A DNA stretch of 64,000 nt from Deltaproteobacteria bacterium (GCA_016180855.1 JACPAL010000010.1:118988-182987); one strand, 5' to 3'; counted from the first letter of the stretch, positions 10,471-49,912 are shown. Notes: generated by a model not told the origin, from the letters alone. Numbers and translations: made by a program.

Positions 10471-10484
10471 AACAAGGAGAGATT

Positions 10485-19087: not shown

Positions 19088-19155
19088 CCCTCAGGCCACT
19101 TGAATATGTGACAGTCATGCTATCGGGGAAATAGTGTCAGTCACATTTATGCGTG

Positions 19156-19797: not shown

Positions 19798-19820
19798 ATG
19801 ATAATAATATTTATCATATG
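19795..19820. promoter_or_regulatory. Perfect 10-bp inverted repeat overlapping the start codon; putative autoregulatory operator
   Basis: CATATGATAA-(6 nt)-TTATCATATG. The ATG of the 19797 gene lies inside the left arm. The flanks are AT-rich. Confidence 0.5.
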
Positions 19821-19904
19821 ATAATATAACTTATCAACATTTTTAAAAATTAACTCGCAACCTACATTAGGGGGGGCGAAGAGCCAAGCAAGGAGAAGCC
19901 ATCC

Positions 19905-32346: not shown

Positions 32347-32793
32347 AAGATTCCGTTTGTCAACCTCGGCCTGGAGGGCTTGTTCTCCGGTACTCATGAC
32401 CCAGTTATGATTCCAGCGAAAGAGGGATTTTAAAAAAGGGGAAAGCCACCTCACCAACGGTTTTTCAGCCCGAACATTCCAGTGAAATTCAATCTCCGCA
32501 TGCGGACCGTGTTGAGAAAGGGTCCATCGACCTGTGCCGACCAGTTCGCCAGAGGCGTGTATTTCCAACTCCCAAGGGGCATTTTCCCGAACCAGTTCGG
32601 TTATAAACTGCAATGTATAGGGAAGTTTCGCTCGAACTTTTGAGCTCACTTTTTTATCTGAAAGTTGTTTTGACTCCTGATACGCGGGTCGCCACCATCG
32701 GGCGTAATGGGCCCCATCCCTCAGGATGGAAAAAACCTCATGGCAATTACCTCGAATTCGCCAATGGGTCACAAACCGATAGTCGTGATTCAT
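32335..32793 (-). CDS. SRPBCC/polyketide cyclase-like (START/Bet v1 fold) protein
   Basis: 152 aa with a Polyketide_cyc2-like pattern. Low certainty. Confidence 0.5.
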   Translation of the reverse strand: MNHDYRFVTHWRIRGNCHEVFSILRDGAHYARWWRPAYQESKQLSDKKVSSKVRAKLPYTLQFITELVRENAPWELEIHASGELVGTGRWTLSQHGPHAEIEFHWNVRAEKPLVRWLSPFLKSLFRWNHNWVMSTGEQALQAEVDKRNLSFF

Positions 32794-33812
32794 TAAGTTA
32801 ACCCGATTGTCTCCTCAAGCCCGCACATCAAATTCATATTTTGCACCGCCTGACCCGACGCCCCTTTGATAAGGTTATCGATGGCGGTGACCACAATGAT
32901 CTGGCCCGTTGGGGAATGATGAAGGGCGCCGATGTGGCAGGCATTCGTTCCGGTCACCTCTTTGGTTTTTGGAAAATAACCTTCCGGGAGAACCTTCACA
33001 AACGGCTCGTTTTGATAATAGGATTGGAAGGCCTTCAGGATCTTTTGGGTATCCGTTTTGCTCGTTGGTTTGAGATAAATGGTGGAAAGAATTCCCCGAT
33101 GCATCGGGATGAGATGCGGGGTAAAAACAACTGAAACAGGTTTTTTGGCGGCGAGAGAGAGTTCCTGCTCGATTTCTGGTGTGTGGCGATGTTTTCCAAT
33201 GTTATAGGCATGGACCGACTCATTCGCCTCAAATTTTAGTTTTTCCTCAACCGTTTTTCTGCCCGCGCCACTCATCCCCGATTTAGAGTCGATCACAATG
33301 CCATCCGGGCTGACGATCCCTTCCTTCAGGAGGGGAAGAATGCCCAAAAGGGCTCCCGTTGGATAGCAACCGGGATTGCCAACAAGGGAGGCGTTGCGAA
33401 TCTCCTCCCGATGGAACTCCGGGAGTCCGTACACAGATTTCTTAAGCAAGTCGGGAGTGGAATGTTTTTGGTACCATTTTTCATAAATGGAAACATCGTT
33501 AAATCGAAAGTCGGCGGAGAGGTCGACAACCTTGAGACCGTTTTTAATCCAGAGTGGGATGTGGCTCATCGCCTCTTTGTGGGGGAGGCAACTAAAAACG
33601 AAAAGACCATTGCGGCTGATCGGGTCATCCTGAAGCGGTTCGAAGGCAAGGTCGATTTTTAGGTCGGGGAAAATAGCAGAGATCTTTTTCCCCGCAAGAC
33701 TCTGCGAGGTCGCCTTGATAATCTCAACATCCGGATGATGGGAGAGGATCCGCAGGAGCTCCTCCCCGGTATATCCGGTCGCTCCGACGATTCCGACACG
33801 GATTTTTTTCAC
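32793..33812 (-). CDS. argC: N-acetyl-gamma-glutamyl-phosphate reductase
   Basis: VGATGYTG Rossmann N-terminus and the catalytic Cys region (SGMSGAG). Confidence 0.9.
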   Translation of the reverse strand: MKKIRVGIVGATGYTGEELLRILSHHPDVEIIKATSQSLAGKKISAIFPDLKIDLAFEPLQDDPISRNGLFVFSCLPHKEAMSHIPLWIKNGLKVVDLSADFRFNDVSIYEKWYQKHSTPDLLKKSVYGLPEFHREEIRNASLVGNPGCYPTGALLGILPLLKEGIVSPDGIVIDSKSGMSGAGRKTVEEKLKFEANESVHAYNIGKHRHTPEIEQELSLAAKKPVSVVFTPHLIPMHRGILSTIYLKPTSKTDTQKILKAFQSYYQNEPFVKVLPEGYFPKTKEVTGTNACHIGALHHSPTGQIIVVTAIDNLIKGASGQAVQNMNLMCGLEETIGLT

Positions 33813-34718: not shown

Positions 34719-36578
34719 ATGTTTCCTCTGACGACCGGTCTCCTCTTAATCGTTGCGCTGGGCCTTTTCGGCACGACCCTCTATCGGTGGGGTACGATTT
34801 TTCGCAAAGCGAAACCGGATTCTCGATGGAACGATTTCAGGAGACGTTTCTGGAATCTCCTGACGATTGCCTTTGCCCAAACCAAGATGATCCGTGGGGA
34901 TTTCAGGGCAGGGCTCATGCATGCCATTATCTTTTGGGGATTTTTAGTCATAGCGCTTCGGACAATCCTGCTTTTTGGAATCGGGTTTGAGGCCGACTTC
35001 GGGCGATCGTTTCTGGAATCAGTGGCCGGGCGGTTTTATATTCTCTCTCTCCCTGTTGTTGAAGGGCTTGTGTTGCTGGCGGTCGGTTATGCGGCCTATC
35101 GGAGATGGTTTGTTAAACCGGGGCGTCTGACTCTTTCTGCGGAGGGGCTCATTATCCTCGTCGCGATTGCGTTACTCATGGTCAGTGATTTTGCCATTGA
35201 TGGGACAACGGGTGCCCTGCAGACGGCGGCCTATTTTTTTCATATTATCCTGGTCCTCGCCTTCTTGAACTATCTCCCGTATGGCAAGCATTTTCATATC
35301 CTGACCTTCCTCCCGAATGTCTTTTTCATGAGGACAACGCCTCTGGGTCAGCTTAGAAATCTTAATCTCGAGGATCCGAATGCGACCTCTTTTGGGATGG
35401 GCAAGCTTGAGGATCTCACCTGGAAAGATATGTTGGATGTCGCGACCTGTACGGAGTGTGGACGGTGTTCCTCAGTTTGTCCTGCGACCAACACGGGAAA
35501 GATTCTCAGTCCCAAGCAGCTTAATATTGATGAGAGGAGGGAATTAAGGAAGGGACCTGAGGGGCCGGAAGGAGAAAAATTTCTCTCGCCCCATCTTATT
35601 GATCCTGAGGTTTTCTGGTCCTGCACCACCTGCCGGGCCTGTGAAGAGGCCTGTCCGGTCGGGATTGAGTTTGTTGATCGAATTGTTGGGACGCGTCGGC
35701 ACATGGTTCTCACTCAGGGAGTCATGCCGACCGAGGTTCAGAATACGTTCAGAAATATGGAGACTCATTCGAACCCCTGGGGCTTGGCGGCCGATGATCG
35801 TGCGGAATGGTGCAAGGGTCTTGGTGTCAAAATATTTGCCGAGAAGCCGGATGCCGAGTATCTCTATTTTGTCGGCTGTGCCGGCTCTTTTGATGATCGG
35901 AACAAACGGATTGCCACCGCCTTTGTTAAAATTTTGCAGAAGGCACATGTTGACTTCGCAATTTTAGGAAAGGAGGAGTGTTGTACCGGGGATCCGGCCC
36001 GCCGGATCGGCAATGAGTACCTCTTTCAGACGCTGGCCAAACAAAACATTGAGATGATGAACCGATACAAGGTGAAGAAGATCCTGACGGCCTGTCCCCA
36101 CTGTTTCAACACCCTTGGAAATGAATACCCGCAGTTCGGTGGAAATTATGAAGTGATCCATCACACCGATTTTGTCTATCAGTTGATTCGTGAGGGGAGG
36201 GTCCGGCCGGTCTCACCGCTTCCTCAACGAGTCACCTACCACGACTCCTGCTATCTGGGGCGTTACAATGGGGTTTACGACGCCCCTCGTGAGATTTTGA
36301 AATCAATTCCCGGCGCTGAAGTTGTCGAGGCGCCTCTCTCCCGCTCCAATGGCCGATGTTGTGGTGCCGGAGGTGGTCGGATGTGGATGGAAGAGAGGGT
36401 CGGCAAGCGTGTCAATCACCAGCGCTTAGAGGATCTTCAAGAGGCGAGTCCCCATGTTATTGCGAGCGCCTGTCCTTTCTGTATCACGATGCTTCGGGAT
36501 GCGACGAGAGACAAGCATCTTGAAGAGCAGGTTCAGACCAGGGATGTGATTGAATTAGTTGCAGAGGCGATGGGCTAG
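34719..36578 (+). CDS. Fused membrane di-heme-b (HdrE/DsrM/NarI-like) plus HdrD/DsrK-like Fe-S CCG-domain oxidoreductase
   Basis: Five N-terminal TM helices with conserved His residues. 2x[4Fe-4S] motifs (CTECGRCSSVCP, CTTCRACEEACP). Two CCG domains (CCTGDP...CPHCFNTLG, CCGAGGG...CPFCITM). Confidence 0.8.
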   Translation: MFPLTTGLLLIVALGLFGTTLYRWGTIFRKAKPDSRWNDFRRRFWNLLTIAFAQTKMIRGDFRAGLMHAIIFWGFLVIALRTILLFGIGFEADFGRSFLESVAGRFYILSLPVVEGLVLLAVGYAAYRRWFVKPGRLTLSAEGLIILVAIALLMVSDFAIDGTTGALQTAAYFFHIILVLAFLNYLPYGKHFHILTFLPNVFFMRTTPLGQLRNLNLEDPNATSFGMGKLEDLTWKDMLDVATCTECGRCSSVCPATNTGKILSPKQLNIDERRELRKGPEGPEGEKFLSPHLIDPEVFWSCTTCRACEEACPVGIEFVDRIVGTRRHMVLTQGVMPTEVQNTFRNMETHSNPWGLAADDRAEWCKGLGVKIFAEKPDAEYLYFVGCAGSFDDRNKRIATAFVKILQKAHVDFAILGKEECCTGDPARRIGNEYLFQTLAKQNIEMMNRYKVKKILTACPHCFNTLGNEYPQFGGNYEVIHHTDFVYQLIREGRVRPVSPLPQRVTYHDSCYLGRYNGVYDAPREILKSIPGAEVVEAPLSRSNGRCCGAGGGRMWMEERVGKRVNHQRLEDLQEASPHVIASACPFCITMLRDATRDKHLEEQVQTRDVIELVAEAMG

Positions 36579-36937: not shown

Positions 36938-37081
36938 GGGCTACCTCCCTTGAACTATCAATAACCCTATAACTATAAGCACAAGAGGATATATTCTCAT
37001 ATGCTCATTATTAGATTGATAAATCAAGCAAGAAATGTATATCCTCCAGGCCCGTTTTCGAAGATTCAAAGGGAACTATTT

Positions 37082-37765
37082 ATGGATCTGAGTGTGCGAG
37101 ATCTGGTGCGACTCTTTCAGGTCTCCGAAAAGACAATTTACCGCTGGATCAAGGAGAAGGAGCTTCCGACCTACAAGGTCCACGATCAGTATCGCTTTAG
37201 TCGTTCCACACTTTTGGAATGGGCGCGAAGCCAACGGATCGCGATTCCACCGGAGGCGTTTCAGGAGGAATTCGAGCGGGGTGAGGTGTCGCTTTCTCAA
37301 GCAATCGTCCAGGGTGGAATCCACTATCAGGTGTCGGGCAAGACCCGGGAAGAGGTGATTTGTTCGATCGCCCGTCTCCCCAAACTCCCCTTGGGATTGA
37401 CCGCGGAGGATTTGGCATCGCTTCTGCTTGCTCGGGAGAGTCTCTCGTCGACCGGGATCGGCCAAGGCATTGCAATCCCTCATGTGAAAGACCCGATTGT
37501 CTTGCCGATCAAAGTGCCGTCGGTCTCCGTCTGTTTTTTGGAGAAACCGATCAATTTTGAGGCGATTGATGGGGCGCCTGTCCATACCTTTTTTCTCCTC
37601 CTCTCCCCAACGATCCGGGATCACCTAAGACTTTTATCCAAGATAGCCTTTATTATCCACGATCCGGTTGTTCTGGGAATGATGATTCAGCGAGAGTCAC
37701 AGGAGAGGCTTCTCACAAAAATCAACGCGGTGGAGGCGAATCTTCCGAAGGAGCCGAAACGATGA
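37082..37765 (+). CDS. HTH (Xis/MerR-type, HTH_17) fused to a PTS EIIA type-2 (PtsN/EIIA-Ntr-like) domain
   Basis: N-terminal LSVRDLVRLFQVSEKTIYRWIKEKELPTY, and GIAIPHVK with the phosphorylatable-His motif. The stop overlaps the downstream ATG. An alternative start lies at 37001. Confidence 0.7.
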   Translation: MDLSVRDLVRLFQVSEKTIYRWIKEKELPTYKVHDQYRFSRSTLLEWARSQRIAIPPEAFQEEFERGEVSLSQAIVQGGIHYQVSGKTREEVICSIARLPKLPLGLTAEDLASLLLARESLSSTGIGQGIAIPHVKDPIVLPIKVPSVSVCFLEKPINFEAIDGAPVHTFFLLLSPTIRDHLRLLSKIAFIIHDPVVLGMMIQRESQERLLTKINAVEANLPKEPKR

Positions 37766-39735
37766 CTTTATTTCTGGTCGCCGTCGGTCTTCTGCTCTGT
37801 GCCTCGGTTTTCTCCTTTGCTGCGGGGGGAAAAACGGTGCGGAAGTTCTTTGGGTGTGCGGGTGTCTTTGCTGGATCGATGATCGGCCTGATCTTCTCCC
37901 TGCGGGCCCTCGTCCGGGGAGAATCGGAAACGATCAGCCTGGGGTCACCTCTTCCGGCGCTGACGCTCGCTTTAGGCATTGATCCCTTAAGCGCCTATTT
38001 TCTCGTTGCTGTTTTTGGGCTTTCGCTTCTCGCTGCACTTTATGCCTGGGGGTATCTCGAGGACCAGGAATCTTTACTGCCGAGTCTCCCGTTTTTTCCG
38101 CTTCTGGTTGCCTCAATGGCAACCGTCGTGGCGGTCCGCGATGGATTTTTTTTCCTCATTGTTTGGGAAGTGATGTCTCTTGCCTCTTTCTTTCTTGTCA
38201 CGGCCGAGCATGGTCTGCGTGGGGCCCGCCATGCGGGATGGATCTATTTGATTGCCACTCACCTGGCGACCGCCTTTCTGATGGCGTTTTTCATCCTTCT
38301 CTGTAAAAAGACGGGATCGTTTGCCTTCGACAGTTTTGTCGATCGTGCTTTTCCTTCCCCCTTCTTCACCAGCCTCCTTTTTTTCTTTGCCTTGATCGGT
38401 TTTGGTACGAAGGCGGGAATTTTTCCCTTTCACGTCTGGCTCCCGCATGCTCATTCGGCGGCACCCAGTTACATCTCCGCTCTGATGTCCGGTGTCATGA
38501 TCAAGACGGGGATCTATGGGCTCTTAAGAGTCTTGACTTTCCTTGGGACTCCGCCGGTCTGGTGGGGAAGTGTCTTGATCCTGCTCGGACTCTTCTCCGC
38601 TTTTCTCGGTATCCTCCATGCCTTGGTGCAAAAGGATCTGAAGCGCTTGCTAGCCTACTCCAGCATTGAGAACATTGGGATCATCATGGTCGGGATGGGA
38701 CTCGGAGTCATCGGTATGGCCGAAAAGAATTCACTGATCATGCTTCTCGGTTTCGGTGGGGCCCTGTTCCACGTCTGGAATCATGCCCTTTTCAAGGGAC
38801 TCCTTTTTTTTGGGGCAGGAAGTGTTATCCACGCTACCCACTCACGAATCCTTGAACGGTTGGGCGGACTCTTGAAAAAAATGCCGGTGACGGGCACCAC
38901 TTTTTTCATGGGGGCTGTGGCTCTCTGCGGTCTTCCACCCCTCAATGGTTTTGTGAGTGAATGGTTGATTTATTGGGGGGGCTTTCATGGGCTTTCAACG
39001 CTCTCTCACCTGCCATTCTTTTTATCGGTTGCCGCCGTTATTGGGATCGCCTTTGCGGGAGGATTGGCCATCGTCTGTTTTTCGAAGGCCTTTGGTGTTG
39101 TTTTTTTGGGGGAACCGAGGGGGACAAAAATTAATGAGGTTCAAGAAGCGACCCTCTCTGAAAGAATCGCCATGGGGATGTTGGCCCTCCTCTGTGGCAT
39201 TTTGGGGCTCTTTTCCAACCTCATCTGGCCGCTTATTGAGCAGACCACGGCAACCCTTGATCCCCTGATTCTCGACCCAGCCCATGAGGTTGTCGTGCCT
39301 CTCCTCTCCCTCAGCAGAATTTTTATCCTCCTTCTTGGTCTTTTCCTGATTCTTTGGGTGATTCGTGCCTTGATTTTCCGGACGAGGGCTGTTCGCAAAT
39401 CGGTCACGTGGGATTGCGGTTTTGCCCTTCCCTCTGCTCGAATGCAGTACACCGGTGCCTCCCTGGTTGAGCCGCTGATGAACTTTTTCAAACCGATTTT
39501 GAGAGTTGAGACACGTTGTGAGAGGCCGAGAGGACTTTTTCCAAAAGAGACCTGTTTTGAACAACAGGTTGAGGACCTTGCGGAGCATGGGATCTTTCGT
39601 CCGTTGTTTCAAAAGATTTCCGATCTCTTTTCGGCCTTGAGGGCACTTCAGGGCAGTCATGTTCAAAATTATCTTGTCCTGATTTTTGGCGCCCTGATTT
39701 TTTTGATCCTGTGGGAGGTCTGGTTTGGAATCTGA
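37762..39735 (+). CDS. HyfB/HycC/NuoL-like antiporter-type membrane subunit of a group-4 hydrogenase-related (Ehr-like) complex
   Basis: 657 aa Mrp/NuoL-type polytopic protein (WLPHAHSAAP). Confidence 0.8.
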   Translation: MTLFLVAVGLLLCASVFSFAAGGKTVRKFFGCAGVFAGSMIGLIFSLRALVRGESETISLGSPLPALTLALGIDPLSAYFLVAVFGLSLLAALYAWGYLEDQESLLPSLPFFPLLVASMATVVAVRDGFFFLIVWEVMSLASFFLVTAEHGLRGARHAGWIYLIATHLATAFLMAFFILLCKKTGSFAFDSFVDRAFPSPFFTSLLFFFALIGFGTKAGIFPFHVWLPHAHSAAPSYISALMSGVMIKTGIYGLLRVLTFLGTPPVWWGSVLILLGLFSAFLGILHALVQKDLKRLLAYSSIENIGIIMVGMGLGVIGMAEKNSLIMLLGFGGALFHVWNHALFKGLLFFGAGSVIHATHSRILERLGGLLKKMPVTGTTFFMGAVALCGLPPLNGFVSEWLIYWGGFHGLSTLSHLPFFLSVAAVIGIAFAGGLAIVCFSKAFGVVFLGEPRGTKINEVQEATLSERIAMGMLALLCGILGLFSNLIWPLIEQTTATLDPLILDPAHEVVVPLLSLSRIFILLLGLFLILWVIRALIFRTRAVRKSVTWDCGFALPSARMQYTGASLVEPLMNFFKPILRVETRCERPRGLFPKETCFEQQVEDLAEHGIFRPLFQKISDLFSALRALQGSHVQNYLVLIFGALIFLILWEVWFGI

Positions 39736-40651
39736 ATTTTTCTCTCTCATCACCCCTCTTCTGATCTTAACGGGGACCCCTCCATTCTTCCTGGGGGTGA
39801 TTGCGAAGACGAAGGCGTTTTTTGCAGGACGGAAAGGACCCCCTCTCTTGCAGGCGTATTATGATCTTGCAAAACTCCTTCGGAAGGGGGCCGTTGTGAG
39901 CCGGAGTGCCTCTTGGCTCCTCCGTATCGCCCCCGTGGCAATCCTTGCCTCCCTTCTGGTTGCGGGACTTCTTCTCCCGATCGTGGGAGAGGCACCTCTT
40001 CACTTCGAAGGAGATCTGATTCTTTTTGCCTATCTGCTTGCGGTTGGTCGTTTCTTTACGATCCTGGCGGCGCAGGATGTTGGTTCAAGCTTTGAAGGGA
40101 TGGGGGCCAGTCGCGAGGCGGCCTTTGGGGCGTTGTCGGAACTCTCCTTCTTTTTGGGACTCCTCGTCTTGTCGATCTTGCACGGGACGGTTTCCTTAAA
40201 TGGCCTCTTTGAGGCAACCTCCTCCCGCCTCCTGGTGGCCCCGGTGATCTTTCTCCTTTTCGGGACTTTTTTTTTCACCCTCTTGACGGAAAATTCCAGG
40301 ATGCCGATCGATGATCCGACGACCCATCTGGAACTCACAATGATTCACGAGGTCATGATTTTGGATTACTCGGGACCAGACCTGGGGCTGATTCTCTACG
40401 GCGCTTCGGTGAAGCTCTTCCTCTTTATGGTTTTTGTATCCCAGATCCTTTGGCCTCCTGTCGGCTATCTTGGCCCTTTAGCGATCGGCGCGCTCCTTCT
40501 TAAGGTGACGGGTGTGGCGATTGGAATCGGTGTTGTCGAGGCAGCGGTTGCGCGTCTTCGATTGATAAAGATTCCACAACTTCTCATCGCCAATTTTGTC
40601 GTTACTGCTCTGGCCCTGCTCGTGATGCTTTTTGGAAAGGGGATCGGATGA
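39725..40651 (+). CDS. HycD/HyfC/NuoH-like membrane subunit
   Basis: 308 aa with about eight TM helices. NuoH/HycD family pattern. Confidence 0.75.
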   Translation: MESEFFSLITPLLILTGTPPFFLGVIAKTKAFFAGRKGPPLLQAYYDLAKLLRKGAVVSRSASWLLRIAPVAILASLLVAGLLLPIVGEAPLHFEGDLILFAYLLAVGRFFTILAAQDVGSSFEGMGASREAAFGALSELSFFLGLLVLSILHGTVSLNGLFEATSSRLLVAPVIFLLFGTFFFTLLTENSRMPIDDPTTHLELTMIHEVMILDYSGPDLGLILYGASVKLFLFMVFVSQILWPPVGYLGPLAIGALLLKVTGVAIGIGVVEAAVARLRLIKIPQLLIANFVVTALALLVMLFGKGIG

Positions 40652-41283
40652 ACTGGATCTTGATTGGGGTTCTCCTCTCCGCCTTTTTTATTCTCGGCAT
40701 CTCCCGACTTTCGGCCTGCATCCGCGCCGTTGCGTTTCAAGGGGCCTTGCTTTCGGTTCTTCCGATCTTTGTGAAGGGGTGGAACGACCCTCATGCCCTT
40801 TTTCTCTTCGGTGGAACCCTCATCATCAAGGCGATGGTGATTCCATCCCTTCTCTTCCGTTCCATCCGCGAGGCGACCATCCGTGAGGAGGCGGAGCCGA
40901 TCGTCAGTCTCCACCTTTCTCTTTTGGGGGGAGGGGGAATCATGGTGGCCGCCTTTTCAAGCCTGAACGCCCTCCCGCATCTTGCCCCCCCTTTTTCGCC
41001 CCTTTTTATTCCTGCAGCGCTCTCGATTGTCCTGATCGGTCTCTTCCTCCTCATCTCGCGAACCAAGGCGATCAGCCAGGTGATCGGGTTCCTCGTGCTG
41101 GACAACGGGATTTTTCTCTTCGGGATGACGCTCGTTGCCGAGTTTCCGATGACCGTCGAGCTGGGGGTTCTCCTGGATCTCCTGGTGGGGGTCTTCGTGA
41201 TGGGGATTATGATTTATCACATCAACCGGACGTTCGACCATATTGATACGGGGGCCTTGGCGACCCTGAGGGATACCGAATGA
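40648..41283 (+). CDS. HyfE-like small membrane subunit
   Basis: 211 aa polytopic protein. Position and size match HyfE. 4-nt overlaps on both sides. Confidence 0.6.
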   Translation: MNWILIGVLLSAFFILGISRLSACIRAVAFQGALLSVLPIFVKGWNDPHALFLFGGTLIIKAMVIPSLLFRSIREATIREEAEPIVSLHLSLLGGGGIMVAAFSSLNALPHLAPPFSPLFIPAALSIVLIGLFLLISRTKAISQVIGFLVLDNGIFLFGMTLVAEFPMTVELGVLLDLLVGVFVMGIMIYHINRTFDHIDTGALATLRDTE

Positions 41284-42716
41284 TTGCCATTTCATTGGTC
41301 AGCATTCCGGTATTTTTGGGGTTTGGGATCCTCTTTTTTAGAAAAGAGGAACAGAGGAGGCTTCGCCGTCGAATACTTCTGGGAGGGGCGGTCTTTCATC
41401 TCGTCGGCACCGCCGCCCTTCATCTTTCAGAACCTCAAGCGTTGGGGGAGCTGTTTATCACCGTCGATTCACTCGGTCTCCTTTTCCTGTCGATCACGAG
41501 TCTTCTTTTTTTTCTCGTTGCCCTTTATGCCCAAGGCTATTTTCATCATGAGCATGAAGTGCCACGAGAGGGTGTAAGTCATCTCTTTGTTCCGTGCATG
41601 TTCTTCTTTCTGGCAGCGATGACGCTTGTGACTGTGACCTCACACATAGGCCTCTTGTGGGTTGCGATCGAGGCGACAACACTCGCCTCGGCACCGCTTA
41701 TCTATTACCATCGTCACCACCAGGCCCTGGAGGCAGCCTGGAAGTATCTCCTCATCTGTTCCGTTGGTATTGCCCTGGCGTTCTTGGGGATCTTCTTTAC
41801 GGCCGTCGCAGCGAAGGGGACGGGGATCCATCTCTTCGTCTCTTCACTCTCTGCCCAGGCAGGATCCATGGACCCTCGTTGGCTCCGGATCGGTTTTCTC
41901 CTGGTTCTCGTCGGATTCGGGACGAAGGTGGGGCTTGCCCCCTTGCACAACTGGCTCCCGGACGCCCATAGTGAGGCGCCGTCACCCGTCTCGGCCCTTC
42001 TCTCGGGGGCCCTCTTGAATTGTGCCTTCCTGGGGATCCTGCGCTTTTATCAAATCTTGATAGCCGCAGGGCTCGCGGAGTTTGCCCAAAAACTCCTTAT
42101 CCTCCTGGGTCTCATTTCACTTTTTGTTGCCGCCCTCTTCATCAGCGGTCAGCGTGATTACAAGCGGATGCTCGCCTACTCCAGCATCGAGCATATGGGG
42201 ATCCTCGCCCTTGCGGTTGGGATCGGGGCCGATTTTGCGGGTCTCCTCCATGCGGTCAATCATTCTCTGACAAAGGCGCTTTTGTTTCTGGTTGCGGGAC
42301 AGATCCTCATTCTCTATCGGACAAAGATTGCCTCCGATGTTCATGGTCTTCTGAAAACAATCCCGCCTACCGGCTTCCTTTGGGTCTTCGGCGGGTTGGC
42401 GATTATCGGAACACCCCCGTTCAGTCTCTTCGTGAGTGAATTCTTGATCCTCAAGGCCGGCCTTGCCCGAGGGCATTTTGTCGCTATGGGCCTCTACCTT
42501 CTCTTTTTGGGAATTATCTTTGTCTCCTTCTCGAGGATTCTCTTCGCCATGGTTCAAGGGGATCGACGGGAACTGCCTGTTAAAACCGTTCCTTGGTCGA
42601 TGCTCTTTTCGCCGGCGTTTCTCGCCGCCTTCGTGCTCCTTTTTGGTCTCTATCTTCCGCAACCGGTCGTCGTGATTCTCAGGGAAGCGGCCCGTCTTAT
42701 TCGGGGTGTCTCATGA
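41280..42716 (+). CDS. HyfF/HyfD/NuoM/N-like antiporter-type membrane subunit
   Basis: 478 aa (WLPDAHSEAPSPVSAL). Confidence 0.8.
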   Translation: MIAISLVSIPVFLGFGILFFRKEEQRRLRRRILLGGAVFHLVGTAALHLSEPQALGELFITVDSLGLLFLSITSLLFFLVALYAQGYFHHEHEVPREGVSHLFVPCMFFFLAAMTLVTVTSHIGLLWVAIEATTLASAPLIYYHRHHQALEAAWKYLLICSVGIALAFLGIFFTAVAAKGTGIHLFVSSLSAQAGSMDPRWLRIGFLLVLVGFGTKVGLAPLHNWLPDAHSEAPSPVSALLSGALLNCAFLGILRFYQILIAAGLAEFAQKLLILLGLISLFVAALFISGQRDYKRMLAYSSIEHMGILALAVGIGADFAGLLHAVNHSLTKALLFLVAGQILILYRTKIASDVHGLLKTIPPTGFLWVFGGLAIIGTPPFSLFVSEFLILKAGLARGHFVAMGLYLLFLGIIFVSFSRILFAMVQGDRRELPVKTVPWSMLFSPAFLAAFVLLFGLYLPQPVVVILREAARLIRGVS

Positions 42717-44191
42717 ACCGGTTTTCAAGCCTTCAGAATGCCCTCCCACTCTCTATTCAAGAGATCCCCGTGATGGACCTTGATTCCTGGCGGAATGAAA
42801 TCCTTAAAATCTGTCGTGAGTCCAAAGGGAGACTCATCGCCCTCTTCTCTGCCCCGGCAGGAAAGGTCTCGCGGCTCTTTGGGGTCGTGGGAATTGATCA
42901 GCATGGAGAGCTCCGAGTCGGTGCGACGGACCTTGGTCCTAACAGGAGTTATGCTTCGCTTACCCCGGAGCTCCCCGAGGCGCATCTCTTTGAAAGGGAG
43001 CTCTTTGAGGAAGAGGGGATCCTGCCAGAGGGTCACCCTTGGCGGAAGCCGGTCCGAAAACATGAAACCGGCCCCGAAGGGGCGTATCCTTTTTACGAAA
43101 TTGCGGGAGAGGAGATCCATGAGGTGGCCGTTGGGCCGGTGCATGCCGGGATCATCGAACCGGGACACTTTCGTTTTCAATGCCACGGGGAAAAGGTCCT
43201 GCACCTTGAAATTCGGCTTGGATACCAGCATCGCGGTGTTGAAAAGCTTCTTCCGAAATCAAAACCGACTCGGCGTGCTGTCCTCGCCGAATCGGTTGCG
43301 GGAGACACGGTAGTTGGTCATGCCTTGACCTACGCCCACGCCATTGAGGCGCTTGCCGGCAGGTCGGTTCCTCAAAGGGCCAAGTGGCTTCGCGTTGTGG
43401 TGCTCGAATTGGAAAGACTCTCTAATCACATTGGCGATCTGGGAGCCTTGGGGGCGGATATCGGTTTTCTCCCTGCCTCGGCCTATTTTGGAAGGCTTCG
43501 CGGAGAATTCTTAAATCTCCTCATGGAACTCACCGGAAACCGATACGGCCGCTCGTTTATTCGACCGGGTGGGGTCCTCACGGATCTTTCTGAAAAAAAA
43601 CGGGTGGATTTTCAACGACGACTCGCCGTGACATCGCGCGAAATTCGCGAGGTGGCCGATCTCTTTTTTTCGACCTCATCGGTCCTCGCGCGTCTCGAGC
43701 ATACCGGCGTGGTGACCCGCGAGATCGCTCAGTCTCTCGGTCTGGTCGGTCCTGCCGCACGGGCAAGCAATCTCATACGTGACATTAGGCACGACTATCC
43801 AACCGGGGCGTATCGTTTCCACTACATCCCTCCCGTCCGGCTTACCTCAGGGGATGTCTATGCACGGGCAAGGATCCGGTCTCTGGAGGGCAAGCGGTCG
43901 TTGGAGTTTCTTGAGGAGGCGCTCAAAGCGCTTCCCCCTGACAAGATTTTTCATCTCTGTGAGGGGTTGCAAGCCTCTTCCCTGGTTGTCAGTTTGATCG
44001 AGGGGTGGCGTGGCGAAATTGCCCATATTGCGATGACCGATGCCCGAGGGGAGATTGATCGTTACAAGATTGTCGATCCATCGTTTCACAACTGGATGGG
44101 GCTCTCTCTTGCAATGCGTGACGGACAGATCTCCGACTTTCCACTTTGTAACAAGAGCTTCAATCTTTCGTACGCCGGGCACGATTTGTAG
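42713..44191 (+). CDS. NuoC-NuoD-like 'large subunit' (HycE-like) lacking all four NiFe-ligand cysteines
   Basis: The ATG at 42713 overlaps the upstream TGA. N-terminal NuoC-like ERELFEEEGI..GHPW. GPVHAGIIEPGHFRF. The L1 position reads ...AESVAGDTVVGHALTY with no CxxC. The C-terminus reads IVDPSFHNW instead of DPCxxCxxR. Confidence 0.8.
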   Translation: MNRFSSLQNALPLSIQEIPVMDLDSWRNEILKICRESKGRLIALFSAPAGKVSRLFGVVGIDQHGELRVGATDLGPNRSYASLTPELPEAHLFERELFEEEGILPEGHPWRKPVRKHETGPEGAYPFYEIAGEEIHEVAVGPVHAGIIEPGHFRFQCHGEKVLHLEIRLGYQHRGVEKLLPKSKPTRRAVLAESVAGDTVVGHALTYAHAIEALAGRSVPQRAKWLRVVVLELERLSNHIGDLGALGADIGFLPASAYFGRLRGEFLNLLMELTGNRYGRSFIRPGGVLTDLSEKKRVDFQRRLAVTSREIREVADLFFSTSSVLARLEHTGVVTREIAQSLGLVGPAARASNLIRDIRHDYPTGAYRFHYIPPVRLTSGDVYARARIRSLEGKRSLEFLEEALKALPPDKIFHLCEGLQASSLVVSLIEGWRGEIAHIAMTDARGEIDRYKIVDPSFHNWMGLSLAMRDGQISDFPLCNKSFNLSYAGHDL

Positions 44192-44205
44192 GAGAGAAGA
44201 AAAAA

Positions 44206-44982
44206 GTGTGGGACCTTCTTAAAAATCGGTGGAAACAAAGGTACAGGACGCAACCCTTTCCTCCAAGAGAGTTGCTGCCGGAGCCGTTTCGCGGGAGACC
44301 GGTTATTGATCCGAAGAGATGTGAGGACGGCTGCCGGCGGTGTGCCGAGGTCTGTCCCACAAGTGCCATTTTGGCCTCTCCGCTCCGGCTCGATCTTGGC
44401 CGATGCCTCTTTTGTCAGGAGTGTGTGTTGGCCTGTCCTGAAGGGGCGATCACTTACTCTCAGGACCATCGGATGGCGATCGGAAACAAAACGGATCTTC
44501 TCTTGACCGGAGAGGAGATAAAGCTTGCCCAGGCCTTGGATCAAAAGATGCGAAAACTCTTTGGGCGATCTCTCAAGCTCCGGGAGGTCTGCGCCGGAAG
44601 CTGCAACGGCTGCGATCTGGAGCTCCAGGCCTTGAATAATGTCGTTTTCGATCTCTCCCGATTCGGGATCCAGTTTGTCGCCTCGCCCCGTCATGCCGAC
44701 GGACTTGTGATTACGGGACCTGTTACGAAAAACATGACGCTTGCCTTGATGAAGAGCTACGAGGCGGTGCCGGATCCGAAGATTGTGATTGCGGTCGGGG
44801 CCTGCGCGATCAGCGGTGGACCGTTTGAGGGGAGTCCTGAGGTCTTAAATGGGGCGGACGGGACAGTGCCGGTTGATCTCTATATCCCAGGTTGTCCGCC
44901 ACATCCCCTTACGATCCTGGATGGACTTCTGAGATTGTTAGGCAGGATCGAGGAGGAGGATCACCCCTTGAAATCCATATAA
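44206..44982 (+). CDS. Fusion of a 2x[4Fe-4S] ferredoxin (HycF/NuoI-like) with a HycG/NuoB-like small subunit
   Basis: CEDGCRRCAEVCP and CLFCQECVLACP, then CAGSCNGCD...GACAISGG...IPGCPP. Confidence 0.8.
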   Translation: MWDLLKNRWKQRYRTQPFPPRELLPEPFRGRPVIDPKRCEDGCRRCAEVCPTSAILASPLRLDLGRCLFCQECVLACPEGAITYSQDHRMAIGNKTDLLLTGEEIKLAQALDQKMRKLFGRSLKLREVCAGSCNGCDLELQALNNVVFDLSRFGIQFVASPRHADGLVITGPVTKNMTLALMKSYEAVPDPKIVIAVGACAISGGPFEGSPEVLNGADGTVPVDLYIPGCPPHPLTILDGLLRLLGRIEEEDHPLKSI

Positions 44983-45006: not shown

Positions 45007-46254
45007 ATGTCAGACGATTTTGAATCAGCGGTATCCTCCTGGACCTCCCAGCTTGAAAAGGGGGGACGGGATGTGCTCGAAAAGGCACATTCCTGGGAAC
45101 TGTACGAGCAGACCGTAGCGACCGGTTTCTATCCCTATTTTCAGGCATTGGATGAGAATCAGGGCCCGATTGCGCGCTATGAAGGGCGACAGATCCTCAT
45201 GTTCGGCTCCAATAATTATCTGGGACTCACGACCCATCCCAAGGTGCGTGAGGCGGCGGTCCAGGCGGTTCGACAGTACGGGACGAGCATGACCGGTTCA
45301 CGCTTTTTGAACGGGACCCTTAAACTCCACGAGGAACTCGAGGGACGACTGGCCGAGTTTTTTGGCAAGGAATCGGCGCTTGTCTTTGCCACCGGCTATC
45401 AGGCGAACCTCGGGATGCTGACCGCCTTGATTAACAGGGAGTCGGTCGCCGTTGTCGATAAGTATGCCCACGCCTCGGTTCACGACGGGTGTCGTTTGAT
45501 GCAGGGTGAAAGCATTCTTTTTAAACATAACGATTGTATCGATGCCGAGCGGGTTTTATCCGACATCCCTCCCGATCGTGGTGCCTTGCTCGTCGTCGAT
45601 GGTGTTTACAGTATGGAGGGGGATCTGGCTCCACTGCCGGATCTGGTCCGTTTAGCCAGAAAATACAAGATCAGGATCGCCGTCGATGATGCCCACGGTC
45701 TTGGTGTGATGGGACCGGGGGGAAAAGGGACGACACATTATTATGGTGTTCAGGATGAGGTCGATCTTTTGGTCGGGACCTTCAGTAAATCACTGGCCTC
45801 GATCGGCGGTTTTGTCGCCTCGGACAAAAAGACGATCGACTTCATAAAGCATTTCGGTCGTCCCATGATTTTTTCCGCATCACTCGCCCCTTCTTGCACC
45901 GCTGCGGCGTTGGTGGCGCTTGAGATCTTGGAAAATGAACCGGAGCGGGCCGATCAGGTCCGGAAAAATAGCTCCTTCTTGAAGAGAGGCCTGGATGAGA
46001 TCGGCTACGAAACTGGTCAGGCGGCGTCAGCGGTTGTTCCTGTTATCATAGGAGATAGCATCAAGACGTTCATGATCTGGAAGGAATTGATGGACCTGGG
46101 TGTTTATACCAATCCGGTCCTCTATCCCGCGGTTGCCAAGGGGCGGGAGCTGTTACGGGTCAGCTGTCTTGCCACTCATACACGGGACCATCTCCATCAG
46201 GCGCTCGATATTTTCAGAAAGGTCGCCCAGAATTATGAAATCGGTTCACGTTGA
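45007..46254 (+). CDS. Serine palmitoyltransferase / 8-amino-7-oxononanoate synthase-family PLP enzyme (alpha-oxoamine synthase)
   Basis: 415 aa. PLP-lysine region GTFSKSL, and FGSNNYLGL. Confidence 0.8.
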   Translation: MSDDFESAVSSWTSQLEKGGRDVLEKAHSWELYEQTVATGFYPYFQALDENQGPIARYEGRQILMFGSNNYLGLTTHPKVREAAVQAVRQYGTSMTGSRFLNGTLKLHEELEGRLAEFFGKESALVFATGYQANLGMLTALINRESVAVVDKYAHASVHDGCRLMQGESILFKHNDCIDAERVLSDIPPDRGALLVVDGVYSMEGDLAPLPDLVRLARKYKIRIAVDDAHGLGVMGPGGKGTTHYYGVQDEVDLLVGTFSKSLASIGGFVASDKKTIDFIKHFGRPMIFSASLAPSCTAAALVALEILENEPERADQVRKNSSFLKRGLDEIGYETGQAASAVVPVIIGDSIKTFMIWKELMDLGVYTNPVLYPAVAKGRELLRVSCLATHTRDHLHQALDIFRKVAQNYEIGSR

Positions 46255-47368
46255 GCCTGTCGTCAGCAAGAGACAGCTCAAGGAGTTTATTAAGCTACCG
46301 TGGCGGATTTATGAGTCGGACCCCGCGTGGATTCCTCCTTTGATTCAAGAGAGGCTCGATTTTTTAAATCCAAAAAAGAATCCCTTTTTTGAACATGCGG
46401 ATGTCCAGCTTTTTTTGGCCTACAAAAACGGCGAGCTAGTTGGCAGGACTTCTGTGCAGATTGATCACCTCTTCAACCAGATTCATAAGGAGAAAACCGG
46501 TTTTTTTGGATTCTTTGAGTCCGAAAATGATCCCGAAATTGCGGTCGCCTTGATCAAAAAATGCGAAGGCTGGCTCAAAGAGAAGGGGATGACAAAGGTT
46601 CGTGGCCCTTTTAGTTTTTCCTCAATGGATGAGTGCGGTTTTTTGGTCGACGGTTTTCAATATGCACCTTTTATCCTTACAGCCCACAGTACCCCCTATT
46701 ATCCTGCCCTGGCGGAACAGGCCGGCTTGGGGAAGGTGAAGGATCTCTACTGTTGGAAATACGACGGGAGGAATCCGATTCCCGAAATGCCGCTCGCGAT
46801 TGCCGAAGAGGTACGGAAACATCCGGGGCTTGTCGTGCGAGAGGTCGATCCAGGACACCTCGAACGGGATGTTCGGATTATCATGGATGTTTTTAACTCC
46901 GCCTGGTCTCAAAACTGGGGGTTTGTTCCGATGACCGAGGCGGAGCTCAAAAAGGCGGCGCAGGATTTTAAATTGATTCTTGAGCCGACGATGGCGTTGA
47001 TTGCCGAGGTCGATGGGAAACCGGCCGCAATCTCATTATCTCTTCCTAACATTAATCAAGCGATTCGGGATCTCGATGGGAAGCTCTTCCCGTTGGGTCT
47101 ATTGAAACTCCTCTACCGGGTGAAGCGGAAAAAAATCAGCGGCTATCGGCTCATCGCGCTTGGAGTTAAGAAGGAGTTTCGTGGTTCCGTCCTCGGTGGT
47201 CTTTCTGTCCTCCTCTATGTTGAGATGCACCGGCGTGGCAAAAAACTGGGGCTTAAAGAGTGTGAGCTCTCTTGGACATTGGAAGATAACGAAAAGATCA
47301 ACACGGGTATCGAATTTATGGGAGGAGAACGATATAAAACCTATCGCATCTACGAGAAAACGTTATGA
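46235..47368 (+). CDS. BioF2-like / FemAB-like GNAT acyltransferase (candidate bacterial ceramide synthase-type N-acyltransferase)
   Basis: 377 aa. Start at 46235, a 20-nt overlap with the upstream gene. The PF13480-like family is typically found next to BioF/Spt paralogs. Confidence 0.6.
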   Translation: MKSVHVEPVVSKRQLKEFIKLPWRIYESDPAWIPPLIQERLDFLNPKKNPFFEHADVQLFLAYKNGELVGRTSVQIDHLFNQIHKEKTGFFGFFESENDPEIAVALIKKCEGWLKEKGMTKVRGPFSFSSMDECGFLVDGFQYAPFILTAHSTPYYPALAEQAGLGKVKDLYCWKYDGRNPIPEMPLAIAEEVRKHPGLVVREVDPGHLERDVRIIMDVFNSAWSQNWGFVPMTEAELKKAAQDFKLILEPTMALIAEVDGKPAAISLSLPNINQAIRDLDGKLFPLGLLKLLYRVKRKKISGYRLIALGVKKEFRGSVLGGLSVLLYVEMHRRGKKLGLKECELSWTLEDNEKINTGIEFMGGERYKTYRIYEKTL

Positions 47369-47727
47369 CAACAACCCTTCAACAAGCCCTTATTAAAGCT
47401 GGTTTGGTCAAAAAGGAACAGGCCGACAGGATTCAGAAGGCCAAGGTCCCTGCGAGAGTCCATTCATCGGCCAAGCCCAAGTCCGTCGGATTTATTGAGC
47501 GCAAACATCTCCATCATATCCGGACCGACTGTGAGGCGTGCGGAAAGAACTCGCCCGATGTTGAGTATTACGAACATCAAAACAAAAGCCTCGCCAGGAA
47601 ATGGCTCTGTGTGCAGTGTGCCGATACCCACAACATTCTGGACACCTATCGCCAGACGATGCAGAGCTCCCATGCCCAAAGCAAGCTATTCCGGCGTCAG
47701 TACGGTCCGACCAAGGTCTTTAAATGA
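47365..47727 (+). CDS. Small zinc-ribbon protein (two CxxC pairs)
   Basis: 120 aa. CEACG...CVQC. Overlaps its neighbours by 4 nt on each side. Confidence 0.5.
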   Translation: MTTTLQQALIKAGLVKKEQADRIQKAKVPARVHSSAKPKSVGFIERKHLHHIRTDCEACGKNSPDVEYYEHQNKSLARKWLCVQCADTHNILDTYRQTMQSSHAQSKLFRRQYGPTKVFK

Positions 47728-48719
47728 TACCAAAGAAGGCATTTGTCACCGGCGCGACCGGTTTCTTGGGGAGTCATCTCATTGACCGGCTCCTCGAGAA
47801 GGGATGGGAGGTTCATGCCTTGGTCCGCAAGTCGTCCAATCTCCGCTGGCTTTCGGGGAAAAAGATCAATCTTTATTACGGTGATGTTGTTGGCGATCTT
47901 GCGGCCCTCCGGGAAGGTCTTAAAGAGGTCGATCTCTGCTTTCATTTGGCCGGTGTCATCCGGGCAGCAAGGCCCTCTGACTATGACAAGGTTAATGCCG
48001 AGGGGACCCGGAACGTCCTCGAGTCGTTGCTTCAAGTCAACCCCAAGGTGGGGAAGGTTGTTGTGGTGACGAGTTTGGCCGCCTCCGGTCCCGCACAGAA
48101 TGGGAGGCCACTCAACGAGACAGATGACTGTCGTCCGGTCACCGATTATGGGAAGAGCAAGCTCAAGGCCGAAAAAATAGCGATGAGCTATTGTGACAGG
48201 CTACCGGTCACGATTATCCGCCCTCCTGGCATTTATGGTCCGCGTGACACCCAGATTTACCACTATTTTAAGATGGCAACGCGAGGTTTTATTATTCTCC
48301 CGCGAGGAGGCGAGCGAAGGCTGAACCTTGTGCACTCGGACGATGTCGTTCAAGGGATTCTGTTGGCCGCTGAAAGCCCACAATCAACCGGCGAGACTTT
48401 TTTTATTGGAGACGGTGAGAATTACAGTTGGGAAGAGATTGTGGATCAGGTTTCGGCGGCCGTCCGGCCCCGAGGCGTTTTCAAACTGAGGCTTCCCAAG
48501 TCGATGGGCTATCTTCTGGGGGGGTGTGGTGAAATTTTCATGCGGCTGACCGGTCAGATAATCCCGATCAACCTCACCAACATAAAAAATTTTTTCAAAG
48601 GAAACTGGATTTTGGATATCGGCAAGGCCCGGCGAATTCTTGGTTATAGGCCGACCCATCCACTGGCCGAAGGACTTCAGGAGACCGCGGCGTGGTATCG
48701 CAAGCAGGGCTGGCTTTAG
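47724..48719 (+). CDS. NAD-dependent epimerase/dehydratase-family SDR (candidate ceramide reductase CerR-like)
   Basis: GATGFLGSHL Rossmann motif and a YxxxK context. Confidence 0.75.
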   Translation: MIPKKAFVTGATGFLGSHLIDRLLEKGWEVHALVRKSSNLRWLSGKKINLYYGDVVGDLAALREGLKEVDLCFHLAGVIRAARPSDYDKVNAEGTRNVLESLLQVNPKVGKVVVVTSLAASGPAQNGRPLNETDDCRPVTDYGKSKLKAEKIAMSYCDRLPVTIIRPPGIYGPRDTQIYHYFKMATRGFIILPRGGERRLNLVHSDDVVQGILLAAESPQSTGETFFIGDGENYSWEEIVDQVSAAVRPRGVFKLRLPKSMGYLLGGCGEIFMRLTGQIIPINLTNIKNFFKGNWILDIGKARRILGYRPTHPLAEGLQETAAWYRKQGWL

Positions 48720-48896
48720 CCCATCCTATTCCTGAGATCTTCTACTGCGGCTGGCTACAAGGCCATGGGACTGCGTTCTCGGGTCAAAAAGTCCTCGACA
48801 TAGCGCACGGCTATGCCTCCGGGCTTTTTGACCCTGCGGCCTTGCCCCCTGGCCTTTCGCTCGACCTCGCAACGAACATCCCAGGAATAGGATGGG
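48720..48896. mobile_element. 177-bp MITE-like element with 15-bp perfect terminal inverted repeats
   Basis: CCCATCCTATTCCTG (48720..48734) and CAGGAATAGGATGGG (48882..48896). The extended arms match at about 21 of 23 positions. It lies between two convergent genes. Confidence 0.5.
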
Positions 48897-48905
48897 TTAG
48901 TGGAA

Positions 48906-49289
48906 TTAAGCGGTTTTTGATTCGATCAATCCAACAATCCCTTCCGCCGAGTTCAGTGAACTTTCCGCCAATTTTTTATCAGGAGAGACACCCCGTAAGG
49001 CCCCTGCGGCATCCGGATATTTTAATGGGACATAATATTCCGAAAGTTTTTTTAGAGTACCGATATGCTCATCCAGCCAGTCCACCTGCATGAGTTTCAA
49101 GAGACGGATTAACCCATGATCCTTAGGATAGCTTTTGTCTTGATAGACAAGATATCCTTTCATCGCCTTCTCAACGGCCTGCTGCGATAGAACACAAACA
49201 TGAGAGAAGAAACCATCTCGGAGACCTGCTTTTGCAAACGCCAGATCGTCTCTCGCATAGTCAAACCATTCCTCATGCAGCTTTTTCAT
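48906..49289 (-). CDS. HEPN-domain protein (HepT-like toxin)
   Basis: 127 aa with a HEPN-like pattern. Overlaps the MNT gene by 17 nt. Confidence 0.65.
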   Translation of the reverse strand: MKKLHEEWFDYARDDLAFAKAGLRDGFFSHVCVLSQQAVEKAMKGYLVYQDKSYPKDHGLIRLLKLMQVDWLDEHIGTLKKLSEYYVPLKYPDAAGALRGVSPDKKLAESSLNSAEGIVGLIESKTA

Positions 49290-49896
49290 AGAGTATTTTC
49301 CCTCTCTTTACAATTTCATCACGAAAAAATGGTCTTTCTTTGACTGCCTTGGCAAACTCGTCGGGTGTATAAACAAGGAAATCGATGTCGATATCATAAT
49401 TGAGAAGATCGACCAATTGATCAACTCTCTTAAAGTAGCTAAGAGAGGTCTCCTTGATGACCACCATATCGATATCCGAATTAGGCCCCACATGGTCGGT
49501 TGCTGCAGAACCGAAGAGAATTACCTTTTCCGGATCGTAATATTTCTTCAGATCGTCGAGGACCTGTTTCACATTTCTTTCAATCTCCTCCCGTCTTTTA
49601 AGATCCGATATCATCAGAACTTCGGGATTTTTATCCTCTCGCATCTTTTCGATGATTGATTTTATTTCTACGGTGAAAGGATATTTTTGATTCCAGCGAT
49701 AGAAGGCGGTCCCTGTCCTCTCGACCTTTTCGAGAAGACCACCCTTTGTGAGATATTTCAGCTCAAGCCCGACTGCATACGGGGATTCTTTGATCTCAGT
49801 TGCAACCTGTTGGGGGTAAAATTCATAGGACGAATTTATCGTAAATAAGGCTATTATCTTCCGCCGGACGGCTGATTTAACCAATAAATCAAACAT
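49273..49896 (-). CDS. wHTH fused to a minimal nucleotidyltransferase (MntA-like antitoxin)
   Basis: LFGSAATDHVGPNSDIDMVV (GS...DxD). First ATG at 49896; the track start at 49911 is a TTG. Confidence 0.7.
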   Translation of the reverse strand: MFDLLVKSAVRRKIIALFTINSSYEFYPQQVATEIKESPYAVGLELKYLTKGGLLEKVERTGTAFYRWNQKYPFTVEIKSIIEKMREDKNPEVLMISDLKRREEIERNVKQVLDDLKKYYDPEKVILFGSAATDHVGPNSDIDMVVIKETSLSYFKRVDQLVDLLNYDIDIDFLVYTPDEFAKAVKERPFFRDEIVKRGKILYEKAA

Positions 49897-49912
49897 ATTA
49901 TATATATACAAT

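Follow-up and report, generated by a model that had tools for sequence, protein, structure and literature searches.

The question raised by this locus is whether four overlapping genes from an uncultivated, groundwater-type "Deltaproteobacteria" lineage make the ceramide backbone of a bacterial sphingolipid. The genes lie in a 64,000-nucleotide stretch of DNA (GCA_016180855.1, JACPAL010000010.1:118988-182987), here called the window, to whose full length all coordinates refer. An earlier note had compared them with the three-enzyme route of bacterial ceramide synthesis (the serine palmitoyltransferase Spt, the acyltransferase bCerS and the reductase CerR) and had regarded a small zinc-ribbon cistron as an extra, uncharacterised component. 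We have analyzed the four genes, their relatives and their surroundings, and we consider it probable that they form an operon for the ceramide backbone by the Spt-bCerS-CerR route. The first gene groups with Spt, the second belongs to the bCerS family and the fourth is CerR-like although it falls in a sister subclade, and the earlier comparison is supported.

All four genes are on the plus strand and occupy 3.7 kb in total as four overlapping cistrons. Gene 1 (45007-46254, 415 amino acids) encodes a Spt-like, pyridoxal phosphate (PLP)-dependent alpha-oxoamine synthase (AOS), gene 2 (46235-47368, 377 amino acids) a bCerS-family N-acyltransferase with a predicted tandem-GNAT fold, gene 3 (47365-47727, 120 amino acids) a small Cys4 zinc-ribbon protein of an orphan family, and gene 4 (47724-48719, 331 amino acids) a CerR-like extended short-chain dehydrogenase/reductase (SDR). 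The mechanically predicted open reading frame (ORF) of gene 2 begins with a GTG at 46100, but its homologues point to the ATG at 46235; since more than 100 homologues of 374-392 amino acids cover 99-100% of the 377-residue product, we take this ATG as the real start. Counted from it, genes 1 and 2 overlap by 20 nucleotides, and both the gene 2/3 and gene 3/4 junctions are 4-nucleotide ATGA overlaps. Each of the four has many conserved homologues, and they are thus real genes and not chance ORFs. Gene 1 is separated by 24 nucleotides from the end of the preceding gene (44982); no sigma-70-like promoter and no terminator-like site was found in this gap, and a scan of the window for Rfam families and tRNAs yielded no features.

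The first two enzymes

The product of gene 1 matches the Aminotran_1_2 family of Pfam (E = 3e-56). Its highest NCBIfam scores are with SerpalmtaseCFB, the Bacteroidota-type serine palmitoyltransferase (480 bits), and SerpalmtaseBetaP, the betaproteobacterial type (400 bits), followed by a BioF/Kbl-related subfamily (384), BioF (358) and Kbl (357); the alphaproteobacterial Spt (310), ALAS (258) and CqsA (218) models score lower. Among sequences of solved structures the best match is the serine palmitoyltransferase (SPT) of Sphingobacterium multivorum (376 bits), with the SPTs of S. wittichii (293) and S. paucimobilis (272) ahead of a cysteate-C-fatty acyltransferase (262), Kbl (242) and BioF (about 200). 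Identity to the S. multivorum SPT is 44.6%, compared with 31.5% to Kbl and 27.8% to BioF of E. coli. The AOS motifs HAS155, DDAHG227, TFSKS258 (with the PLP lysine) and LLRVS382 align with those of the S. multivorum and S. wittichii SPTs; these catalytic residues are common to all AOS enzymes, and are therefore necessary but not discriminating.

Placement of gene 1 among Spt, BioF and Kbl had been named in the earlier note as a check on its reading. We built a neighbour-joining tree (200 bootstraps) of gene 1, two SPTs from the PDB, a Sphingomonad Spt, bCerS-adjacent synthases, and E. coli BioF and Kbl, the latter two being the only outgroups of this small set. Gene 1, the S. multivorum SPT and the bCerS-adjacent synthases group together in 182 of the 200 replicates, and BioF and Kbl fall outside all Spt-like sequences in 185. 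Identification of gene 1 as BioF or Kbl is rejected by the NCBIfam scores, by the scores against PDB sequences and by the tree alike, and on these comparisons gene 1 groups with the serine palmitoyltransferases. Its predicted product is a 3-keto long-chain base, formed by condensation of a long-chain acyl thioester with an amino acid that is most likely L-serine.

Gene 2 was harder to name. No family was found for it in Pfam (E values up to 10) or NCBIfam, the best match being Acetyltransf_1 with E = 0.039, and PDB sequences gave no useful match. Nevertheless it belongs to a large and well conserved family, with more than 5,500 matches for which the source gives only the name "N-acetyltransferase". 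An AlphaFold2 model built on 42 homologues has a pLDDT (predicted local distance difference test score) of 92.8, and in a Foldseek search of the PDB it is matched by tandem GNATs with a probability of 1.0 and E values from about 2e-14 to 1e-11. These include glucosamine N-acetyltransferase, a tandem GNAT protein of the clavulanic acid pathway, MAB_4324 and MshD; FemX is more distant. The modelled fold thus indicates a tandem GNAT. The earlier description of the product as a BioF2/FemAB-like GNAT is borne out with respect to the GNAT fold, while no match to a BioF2 or FemAB sequence family was found. A literature search on bCerS with GNAT, and on 3WJ7, returned nothing relevant.

The link to bCerS was made through the Sphingomonads. 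Starting from the PDB sequence of the S. wittichii SPT, we collected 80 Sphingomonadaceae spt loci with 10-kb flanks, and identified bCerS and CerR in them by position, using an orthologue table for S. wittichii. This table lists Swit_3897 as CerR, Swit_3899 as AcpR (the dedicated acyl carrier protein, ACP), Swit_3900 as Spt and Swit_3908 as bCerS (PMC11324152, supplementary table); Swit_3908 is given there as 45% identical to Caulobacter bCerS, CC_1154, with E = 5e-109 (PMC11324152, Geiger-laboratory table). In one reference locus, labelled L011, the SPT is 93% identical to that of S. wittichii and the order of ORFs matches the Swit numbering, with a 301-amino-acid ORF three genes before spt and a 382-amino-acid ORF (18949-20097) eighth after it, at the position of Swit_3908. 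Gene 2 aligns with the latter ORF over residues 1-377 with 36.7% identity (E = 4e-65). By tblastn, matches to gene 2 were found in 29 Sphingomonadaceae loci, as same-strand ORFs 4.5-10.9 kb downstream of spt; the full-length ones cover residues 1-377 with 34-38% identity and E values between 1e-60 and 1e-73. A profile made from 21 Sphingomonad bCerS orthologues scores gene 2 at 339.7 bits (E = 4e-105), and 17 residues are invariant across gene 2 and the Sphingomonad and metagenome members. By homology gene 2 clearly belongs to the bCerS family, and it is predicted to N-acylate a long-chain base. The L011 orthologue likewise has no match in NCBIfam; the missing label of gene 2 is therefore a gap in the databases. 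Proteins of this family are invisible to Pfam and NCBIfam, and annotation pipelines will go on labelling them as generic N-acetyltransferases.

The putative reductase and the ceramide reading

Gene 4 encodes an SDR of the epimerase/dehydratase family, as the earlier note had said, with a Pfam Epimerase match of E = 1e-34 and a further match to 3Beta_HSD. The SDR motifs GATGFLG10, TSLAA116 and YGKSK142 are intact, and a basic VRK34 after the second beta strand suggests that NADPH is used. By tblastn, residues 8-331 match an ORF upstream of spt in 47 Sphingomonad loci with 27-32% identity. In 46 of these the match lies 1.3-2.3 kb upstream of spt, where Swit_3897, the orthologue of CerR, is located, and in the remaining one it is 4.1 kb away. 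Scored with a profile of the Sphingomonad CerR orthologues, gene 4 reaches 162 bits (E = 2.6e-51), which is higher than its score with any curated family; the best of these is HpnA (145 bits), which was rejected as an identification because its cutoff is 367, and 98 bits is the top score with a PDB sequence. The same weak pattern, with HpnA first and OleD also among the matches, is seen for the Sphingomonad CerR orthologue and for two SDRs that follow bCerS-like genes. CerR of Caulobacter is reported to be periplasmic and associated with the inner membrane. The Rossmann motif of gene 4 begins at residue 10, which leaves no room for a classical signal peptide; the CerR orthologue of L011 also aligns from residue 1. 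Gene 4 is predicted to be an NAD(P)H-dependent 3-keto reductase acting on the N-acylated or the free base.

The order of genes recurs elsewhere. Among the window's relatives, loci L007 and L008 reproduce all four genes and their overlaps, gene 2 being 88% identical, and L009 has Spt, bCerS and an SDR but no gene 3. Divergent head-group-type genes lie beside the L009 genes (839-6510, minus strand) and encode glycosyltransferases, a polysaccharide deacetylase, PAP2_3, PIG-L, an LPG-synthase-type protein and MMPL. Locus L001 has Spt and bCerS with a PAP2_3 gene and a fatty-acid hydroxylase nearby (neighbouring genes at 4761-5726, minus; 5884-6777, plus; and 10810-11628, minus). The PAP2_3 proteins, which are like sphingomyelin/inositol phosphorylceramide synthases, the hydroxylase, the glycosyltransferases, PIG-L, the LPG-synthase-type protein and MMPL are candidates for head-group, hydroxylation and export functions. 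L002 and L005 have the Spt and bCerS pair only and L003 has bCerS alone; a Spt-like gene stands directly upstream of the bCerS-like gene in L001, L002, L005, L007 and L009.

We also surveyed 80 metagenomic loci with a bCerS-like gene 45-64% identical to gene 2. A Spt-like gene is directly upstream of the bCerS-like gene in 14 of the 50 loci in which this could be assessed, and an SDR like gene 4 is directly downstream in 15 of 51. The complete order Spt, bCerS, SDR was found in six of 39 assessable loci (L102, L109, L143, L150, L154 and L168), with an SDR 47% identical to gene 4 in L109. These counts fit the published picture, since the three genes are reported to be often, but not always, clustered, and to occur in many phyla including Desulfobacterota (PMC11334938).

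In the pathway that we propose, the product of gene 1 would condense L-serine with a long-chain acyl thioester to 3-ketodihydrosphingosine. The acyl donor would probably be acyl-CoA, because the cluster has no dedicated ACP or acyl-ACP synthetase. Gene 2 would then N-acylate the 3-keto base to an oxidised ceramide, whose 3-keto group would be reduced by the gene 4 product, probably with NADPH, to give dihydroceramide. This order of N-acylation and reduction is modelled on Caulobacter, for which the account in PMC11087976 has Spt forming 3-ketosphinganine, bCerS N-acylating it and CerR reducing the oxidised ceramide; knock-outs in B. fragilis also support acylation first and reduction afterwards (bioRxiv 10.1101/2023.05.23.541633).

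Several observations weigh against a ceramide operon. No head-group or transport genes are present among the larger ORFs of the window that were scanned, and the bCerS-like gene stands without an adjacent Spt or SDR partner in 22 of the 39 metagenomic loci that could be assessed. The tie of genes 2 and 4 to the validated enzymes of Caulobacter is indirect, through the orthologue table and synteny. In a neighbour-joining tree with one outgroup and no bootstrap, the clade made up of gene 4, its counterparts in L007 and L093 and a set of unlinked homologues is sister to the clade of Sphingomonad CerR and most bCerS-adjacent SDRs, and a homologue 51% identical to gene 4 (in L177) adjoins no Spt, bCerS or other sphingolipid gene. 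As gene 4 falls in a sister subfamily, its assignment as a ceramide reductase draws on homology and mainly on its position in the operon, rather than on demonstrated orthology. The tree and the L177 homologue would also suit a reading in which genes 3 and 4 are a separate module of other function and the true reductase (CerR or a KDSR-type SDR) is encoded elsewhere. In L093, a homologue of gene 3 and an SDR occur without Spt and bCerS at the same syntenic place, after a gene for a Fer4/CCG protein; in L005 it is Spt and bCerS that occupy this place without the other two. However, all three junctions overlap in the window and in L007 and L008, which suggests coupled expression; an SDR like gene 4 recurs directly after bCerS in the metagenomic loci counted above, and gene 4 scores higher with the CerR-orthologue profile than with any curated family. 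Moreover, sphingolipid genes are dispersed in some known producers, so that unlinked homologues of gene 4 are uninformative. We regard a separate module as unlikely.

A different doubt concerns the amino acid used by gene 1. Its scores lie under the equivalog cutoffs of all three NCBIfam Spt models (480 bits against 640 for the CFB type, 400 against 500 for BetaP and 310 against 670 for AlphaP), and with 480 against 640 for the best of them, alanine, glycine or cysteate are possible substrates as well. The same chemistry would then give a 1-deoxyceramide, a glycine-derived base or a sulfonolipid in place of a serine-derived ceramide. The cysteate-C-fatty acyltransferase structure still scores 262 bits with gene 1, and Desulfobacterota were linked with 1-deoxy and sulfono-1-deoxy ceramides in a Black Sea study (PMC11334938). 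Nevertheless the characterised SPTs outscore the cysteate enzyme by 376 to 262 bits, gene 1 clusters with the S. multivorum SPT in the tree and the cluster has no cysteate synthase. Bacterial SPTs can themselves make 1-deoxy bases from alanine, which would thus be a variation of product and not a different system. As the models are clade-specific, the scores below their cutoffs mark a different lineage and do not point to a different family, and a product not derived from serine seems to us quite improbable. It is scarcely credible that gene 1 has instead the housekeeping function of BioF or Kbl, or is a signal synthase of the CqsA type, and the cluster one for biotin, threonine or an acylated amino-ketone signal. 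The fold and catalytic residues would allow it, the BioF and Kbl models still reach about 357 bits, and a BioB-like radical-SAM gene lies near the Spt and bCerS pair of L001. The Spt models and structures are, however, 100-130 bits above BioF and Kbl, both of which are excluded by the tree at 92% bootstrap; the CqsA model reaches only 218 bits, the conserved partner of gene 1 is a bCerS-family acyltransferase, and there are no bioA, bioB, bioD or tdh neighbours in the window. The evidence thus supports the window operon as a further example of the bacterial ceramide pathway already described.

The zinc-ribbon cistron

Gene 3 has the two CxxC motifs that the earlier note had ascribed to its 120-residue product, CEAC at residue 56 and CVQC at residue 82. 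The protein begins with a helix, MTxTLQxALLKAGLV, that is weakly DUF2058-like. A linker, variable in sequence and basic or rich in proline, joins this helix to a conserved domain of some 75 residues at the C-terminus. In this domain C56, C59, C82 and C85 are invariant, and H48, H50 and H51 are conserved in the adjoining His-rich stretch. Assignment to DUF2058 (YaiL-like) was tried and rejected: only residues 4-37 align, with the first 34 of the 174 profile positions, the score of 17.4 bits is below the cutoff of 25, and DUF2058 has no counterpart to the cysteine-rich C-terminal domain. The family is small, with 66 clusters among 5.8 billion and 70 representatives among 1.84 billion. A structural model of moderate quality (pLDDT of 77-88 in the core) found no structural neighbour in the PDB.

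The position of gene 3 between bCerS and the SDR was seen only in the window and in L007 and L008, and none of the 80 Sphingomonad loci and none of the 80 metagenomic loci with bCerS has a homologue. Homologues elsewhere sit in other contexts. In L093 (GCA_016180845.1, 6001-7340) the gene 3 homologue directly precedes the SDR and overlaps it by 4 nucleotides, and the pair follows the Fer4/CCG gene after a gap of 113 bp; either Spt and bCerS were lost or moved from this site, or gene 3 and the SDR are a separate unit. In L090 and L091 longer homologues (6001-6471, 156 amino acids, and 6001-6633, 210 amino acids) are the last genes of Ubi-type membrane-lipid/quinone operons, following genes for PlsC-like, amidohydrolase, UbiD, UbiE, UbiX and UbiA proteins. 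This may be coincidence, or gene 3 may be a companion of lipid-biosynthetic operons; L090 comes from the same metagenome-assembled genome (MAG) as L005 (GCA_035454885.1). The contexts in L092 and L094 are unrelated.

Because of these other contexts and the absence of homologues from both surveys of 80 loci, gene 3, a real and conserved gene judging from its family, is not a general component of the pathway, in agreement with the earlier view of it as an extra. It is most likely co-translated in this lineage as a lineage-specific passenger or accessory, and not as a catalytic step. A more speculative idea, to which we give little credence, is that gene 3 provides bacterial sphingolipid synthesis in this lineage with an accessory or regulatory subunit. 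It derives from the translational coupling of gene 3 to both neighbours and from the retention of the gene 3 and SDR pair in L093. Such a protein could, for example, be a partner of the CerR-like reductase, or its N-terminal helix and basic linker could serve to anchor the soluble enzymes at the membrane; a loose analogy would be the small subunits and regulators of eukaryotic SPT.

Surroundings and known systems

The six genes directly upstream of gene 1 (37762-44982, plus strand) encode a complex like the group-4 membrane-bound hydrogenases, with NuoL/H/K/N-like subunits, a fused 30-kDa/49-kDa "large subunit", and a combined Fer4 and NuoB-like subunit. In the large subunit the usual NiFe ligands, CxxC towards the N-terminus and DPCxxC towards the C-terminus, are missing; AGDT stands in place of the former, and the C-terminal region has one Cys. 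From its sequence the complex looks like an Ehr-type hydrogenase-related complex and not a true hydrogenase. Its co-transcription with the lipid operon is possible, given the 24-nucleotide gap without a terminator. A gene with helix-turn-helix and PTS-EIIA domains (37001-37765) precedes the complex. A second, complex-I-type set with NuoD, NuoH, NuoJ, NuoL, NuoM and NuoN-like genes is found at 4017-13449 (plus strand), and the window thus holds two related membrane complexes, this set and the Ehr-like block.

The Fer4/CCG (HdrD-like) iron-sulfur protein is encoded at 34719-36578 (plus strand) in the window, 4710-6719 in L005, 2376-4313 in L007 and 3941-5887 in L093. Its gene directly precedes Spt in L005 and L007 and the gene 3 and SDR pair in L093, and lies about 8 kb upstream of Spt in the window, where an insertion of the EIIA gene and the hydrogenase-like block seems to have separated the two. 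An asd-like gene (32793-33812) in the window matches the asd/rpsI/rplM synteny of L007 and L093. At its other end the operon is met by two overlapping, convergent genes on the minus strand, for a HEPN-domain protein (48906-49289) and a nucleotidyltransferase (Polbeta/NTP_transf_2, 49273-49911), which are a typical HEPN/MNT toxin-antitoxin pair. A GTG ORF of 133 amino acids (48692-49093, plus strand) that overlaps the 3' end of gene 4 and lies opposite the HEPN gene has a low-complexity composition and is probably not a gene.

The ceramide pathway became known in 2021-2022 and had already been predicted in dozens of phyla, so that its occurrence here holds little biological surprise. With this operon, however, the lineage joins the predicted bacterial producers of sphingolipids, and its compact 3.7 kb would be a convenient cassette for heterologous reconstitution of ceramide synthesis without the alphaproteobacterial ACP and acyl-ACP synthetase.

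One point of comparison is the pathway of Caulobacter crescentus, whose genes are Spt CCNA_01220, bCerS CCNA_01212 (CC_1154) and CerR CCNA_01222 (CC_1164) (Stankeviciute et al. 2022 and Olea-Ozuna et al. 2021, as cited in PMC11087976 and PMC11324152). The two systems share the three enzyme families, the clustering of the genes, an SDR of the extended epimerase/dehydratase type and strong bCerS homology, the last measured through the Sphingomonad orthologues (340-bit profile score). The window operon differs in lacking genes for a dedicated ACP (AcpR) and an acyl-ACP synthetase (AasR), and neither Lpt-like transport genes nor head-group genes were seen in its neighbourhood among the larger ORFs scanned. 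Its genes are contiguous and overlapping, whereas those of Caulobacter are spread over about 10 kb; its SDR is of a sister subclade, it carries the extra zinc-ribbon cistron, and its Spt resembles the Bacteroidota type (480 bits) more than the alphaproteobacterial one (310 bits). With the Bacteroidota it shares the AOS catalytic residues of the S. multivorum SPT (PDB 3A2B/8GUH), the best solved relative of gene 1, but the three genes are dispersed there (in B. fragilis, CerS BF9343_4218 and CerR BF9343_4240) and form one operon here.

The "clade B" loci of Spt-like genes in environmental MAGs of a Black Sea study (PMC11334938) resemble the window in belonging to uncultivated, anaerobe-type lineages and in having Spt-like, bCerS and CerR homologues within a few genes of each other. 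The 80 metagenomic loci examined here differ from it in that none has the zinc-ribbon gene and that the SDR of the window is of the sister subclade. The capnine/sulfonolipid system, with cysteate-C-fatty acyltransferase and dehydrocapnine reductase, likewise arrives at a sphingolipid-like lipid through an alpha-oxoamine synthase, then an NAD(P)H reductase and N-acylation; the window differs from it in the closer match of gene 1 to SPT (376 bits, against 262 for the cysteate enzyme), in having no cysteate synthase and in the bCerS-family partner. The eukaryotic route by SPT, KDSR and CerS also arrives at dihydroceramide through condensation, keto reduction and N-acylation, and its first enzyme is homologous to gene 1. 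The predicted acyltransferase of the window is, however, a soluble tandem GNAT and not a Lag1/TLC membrane protein, its reductase is an extended SDR and not of the KDSR type, and the order of the last two steps is probably reversed.

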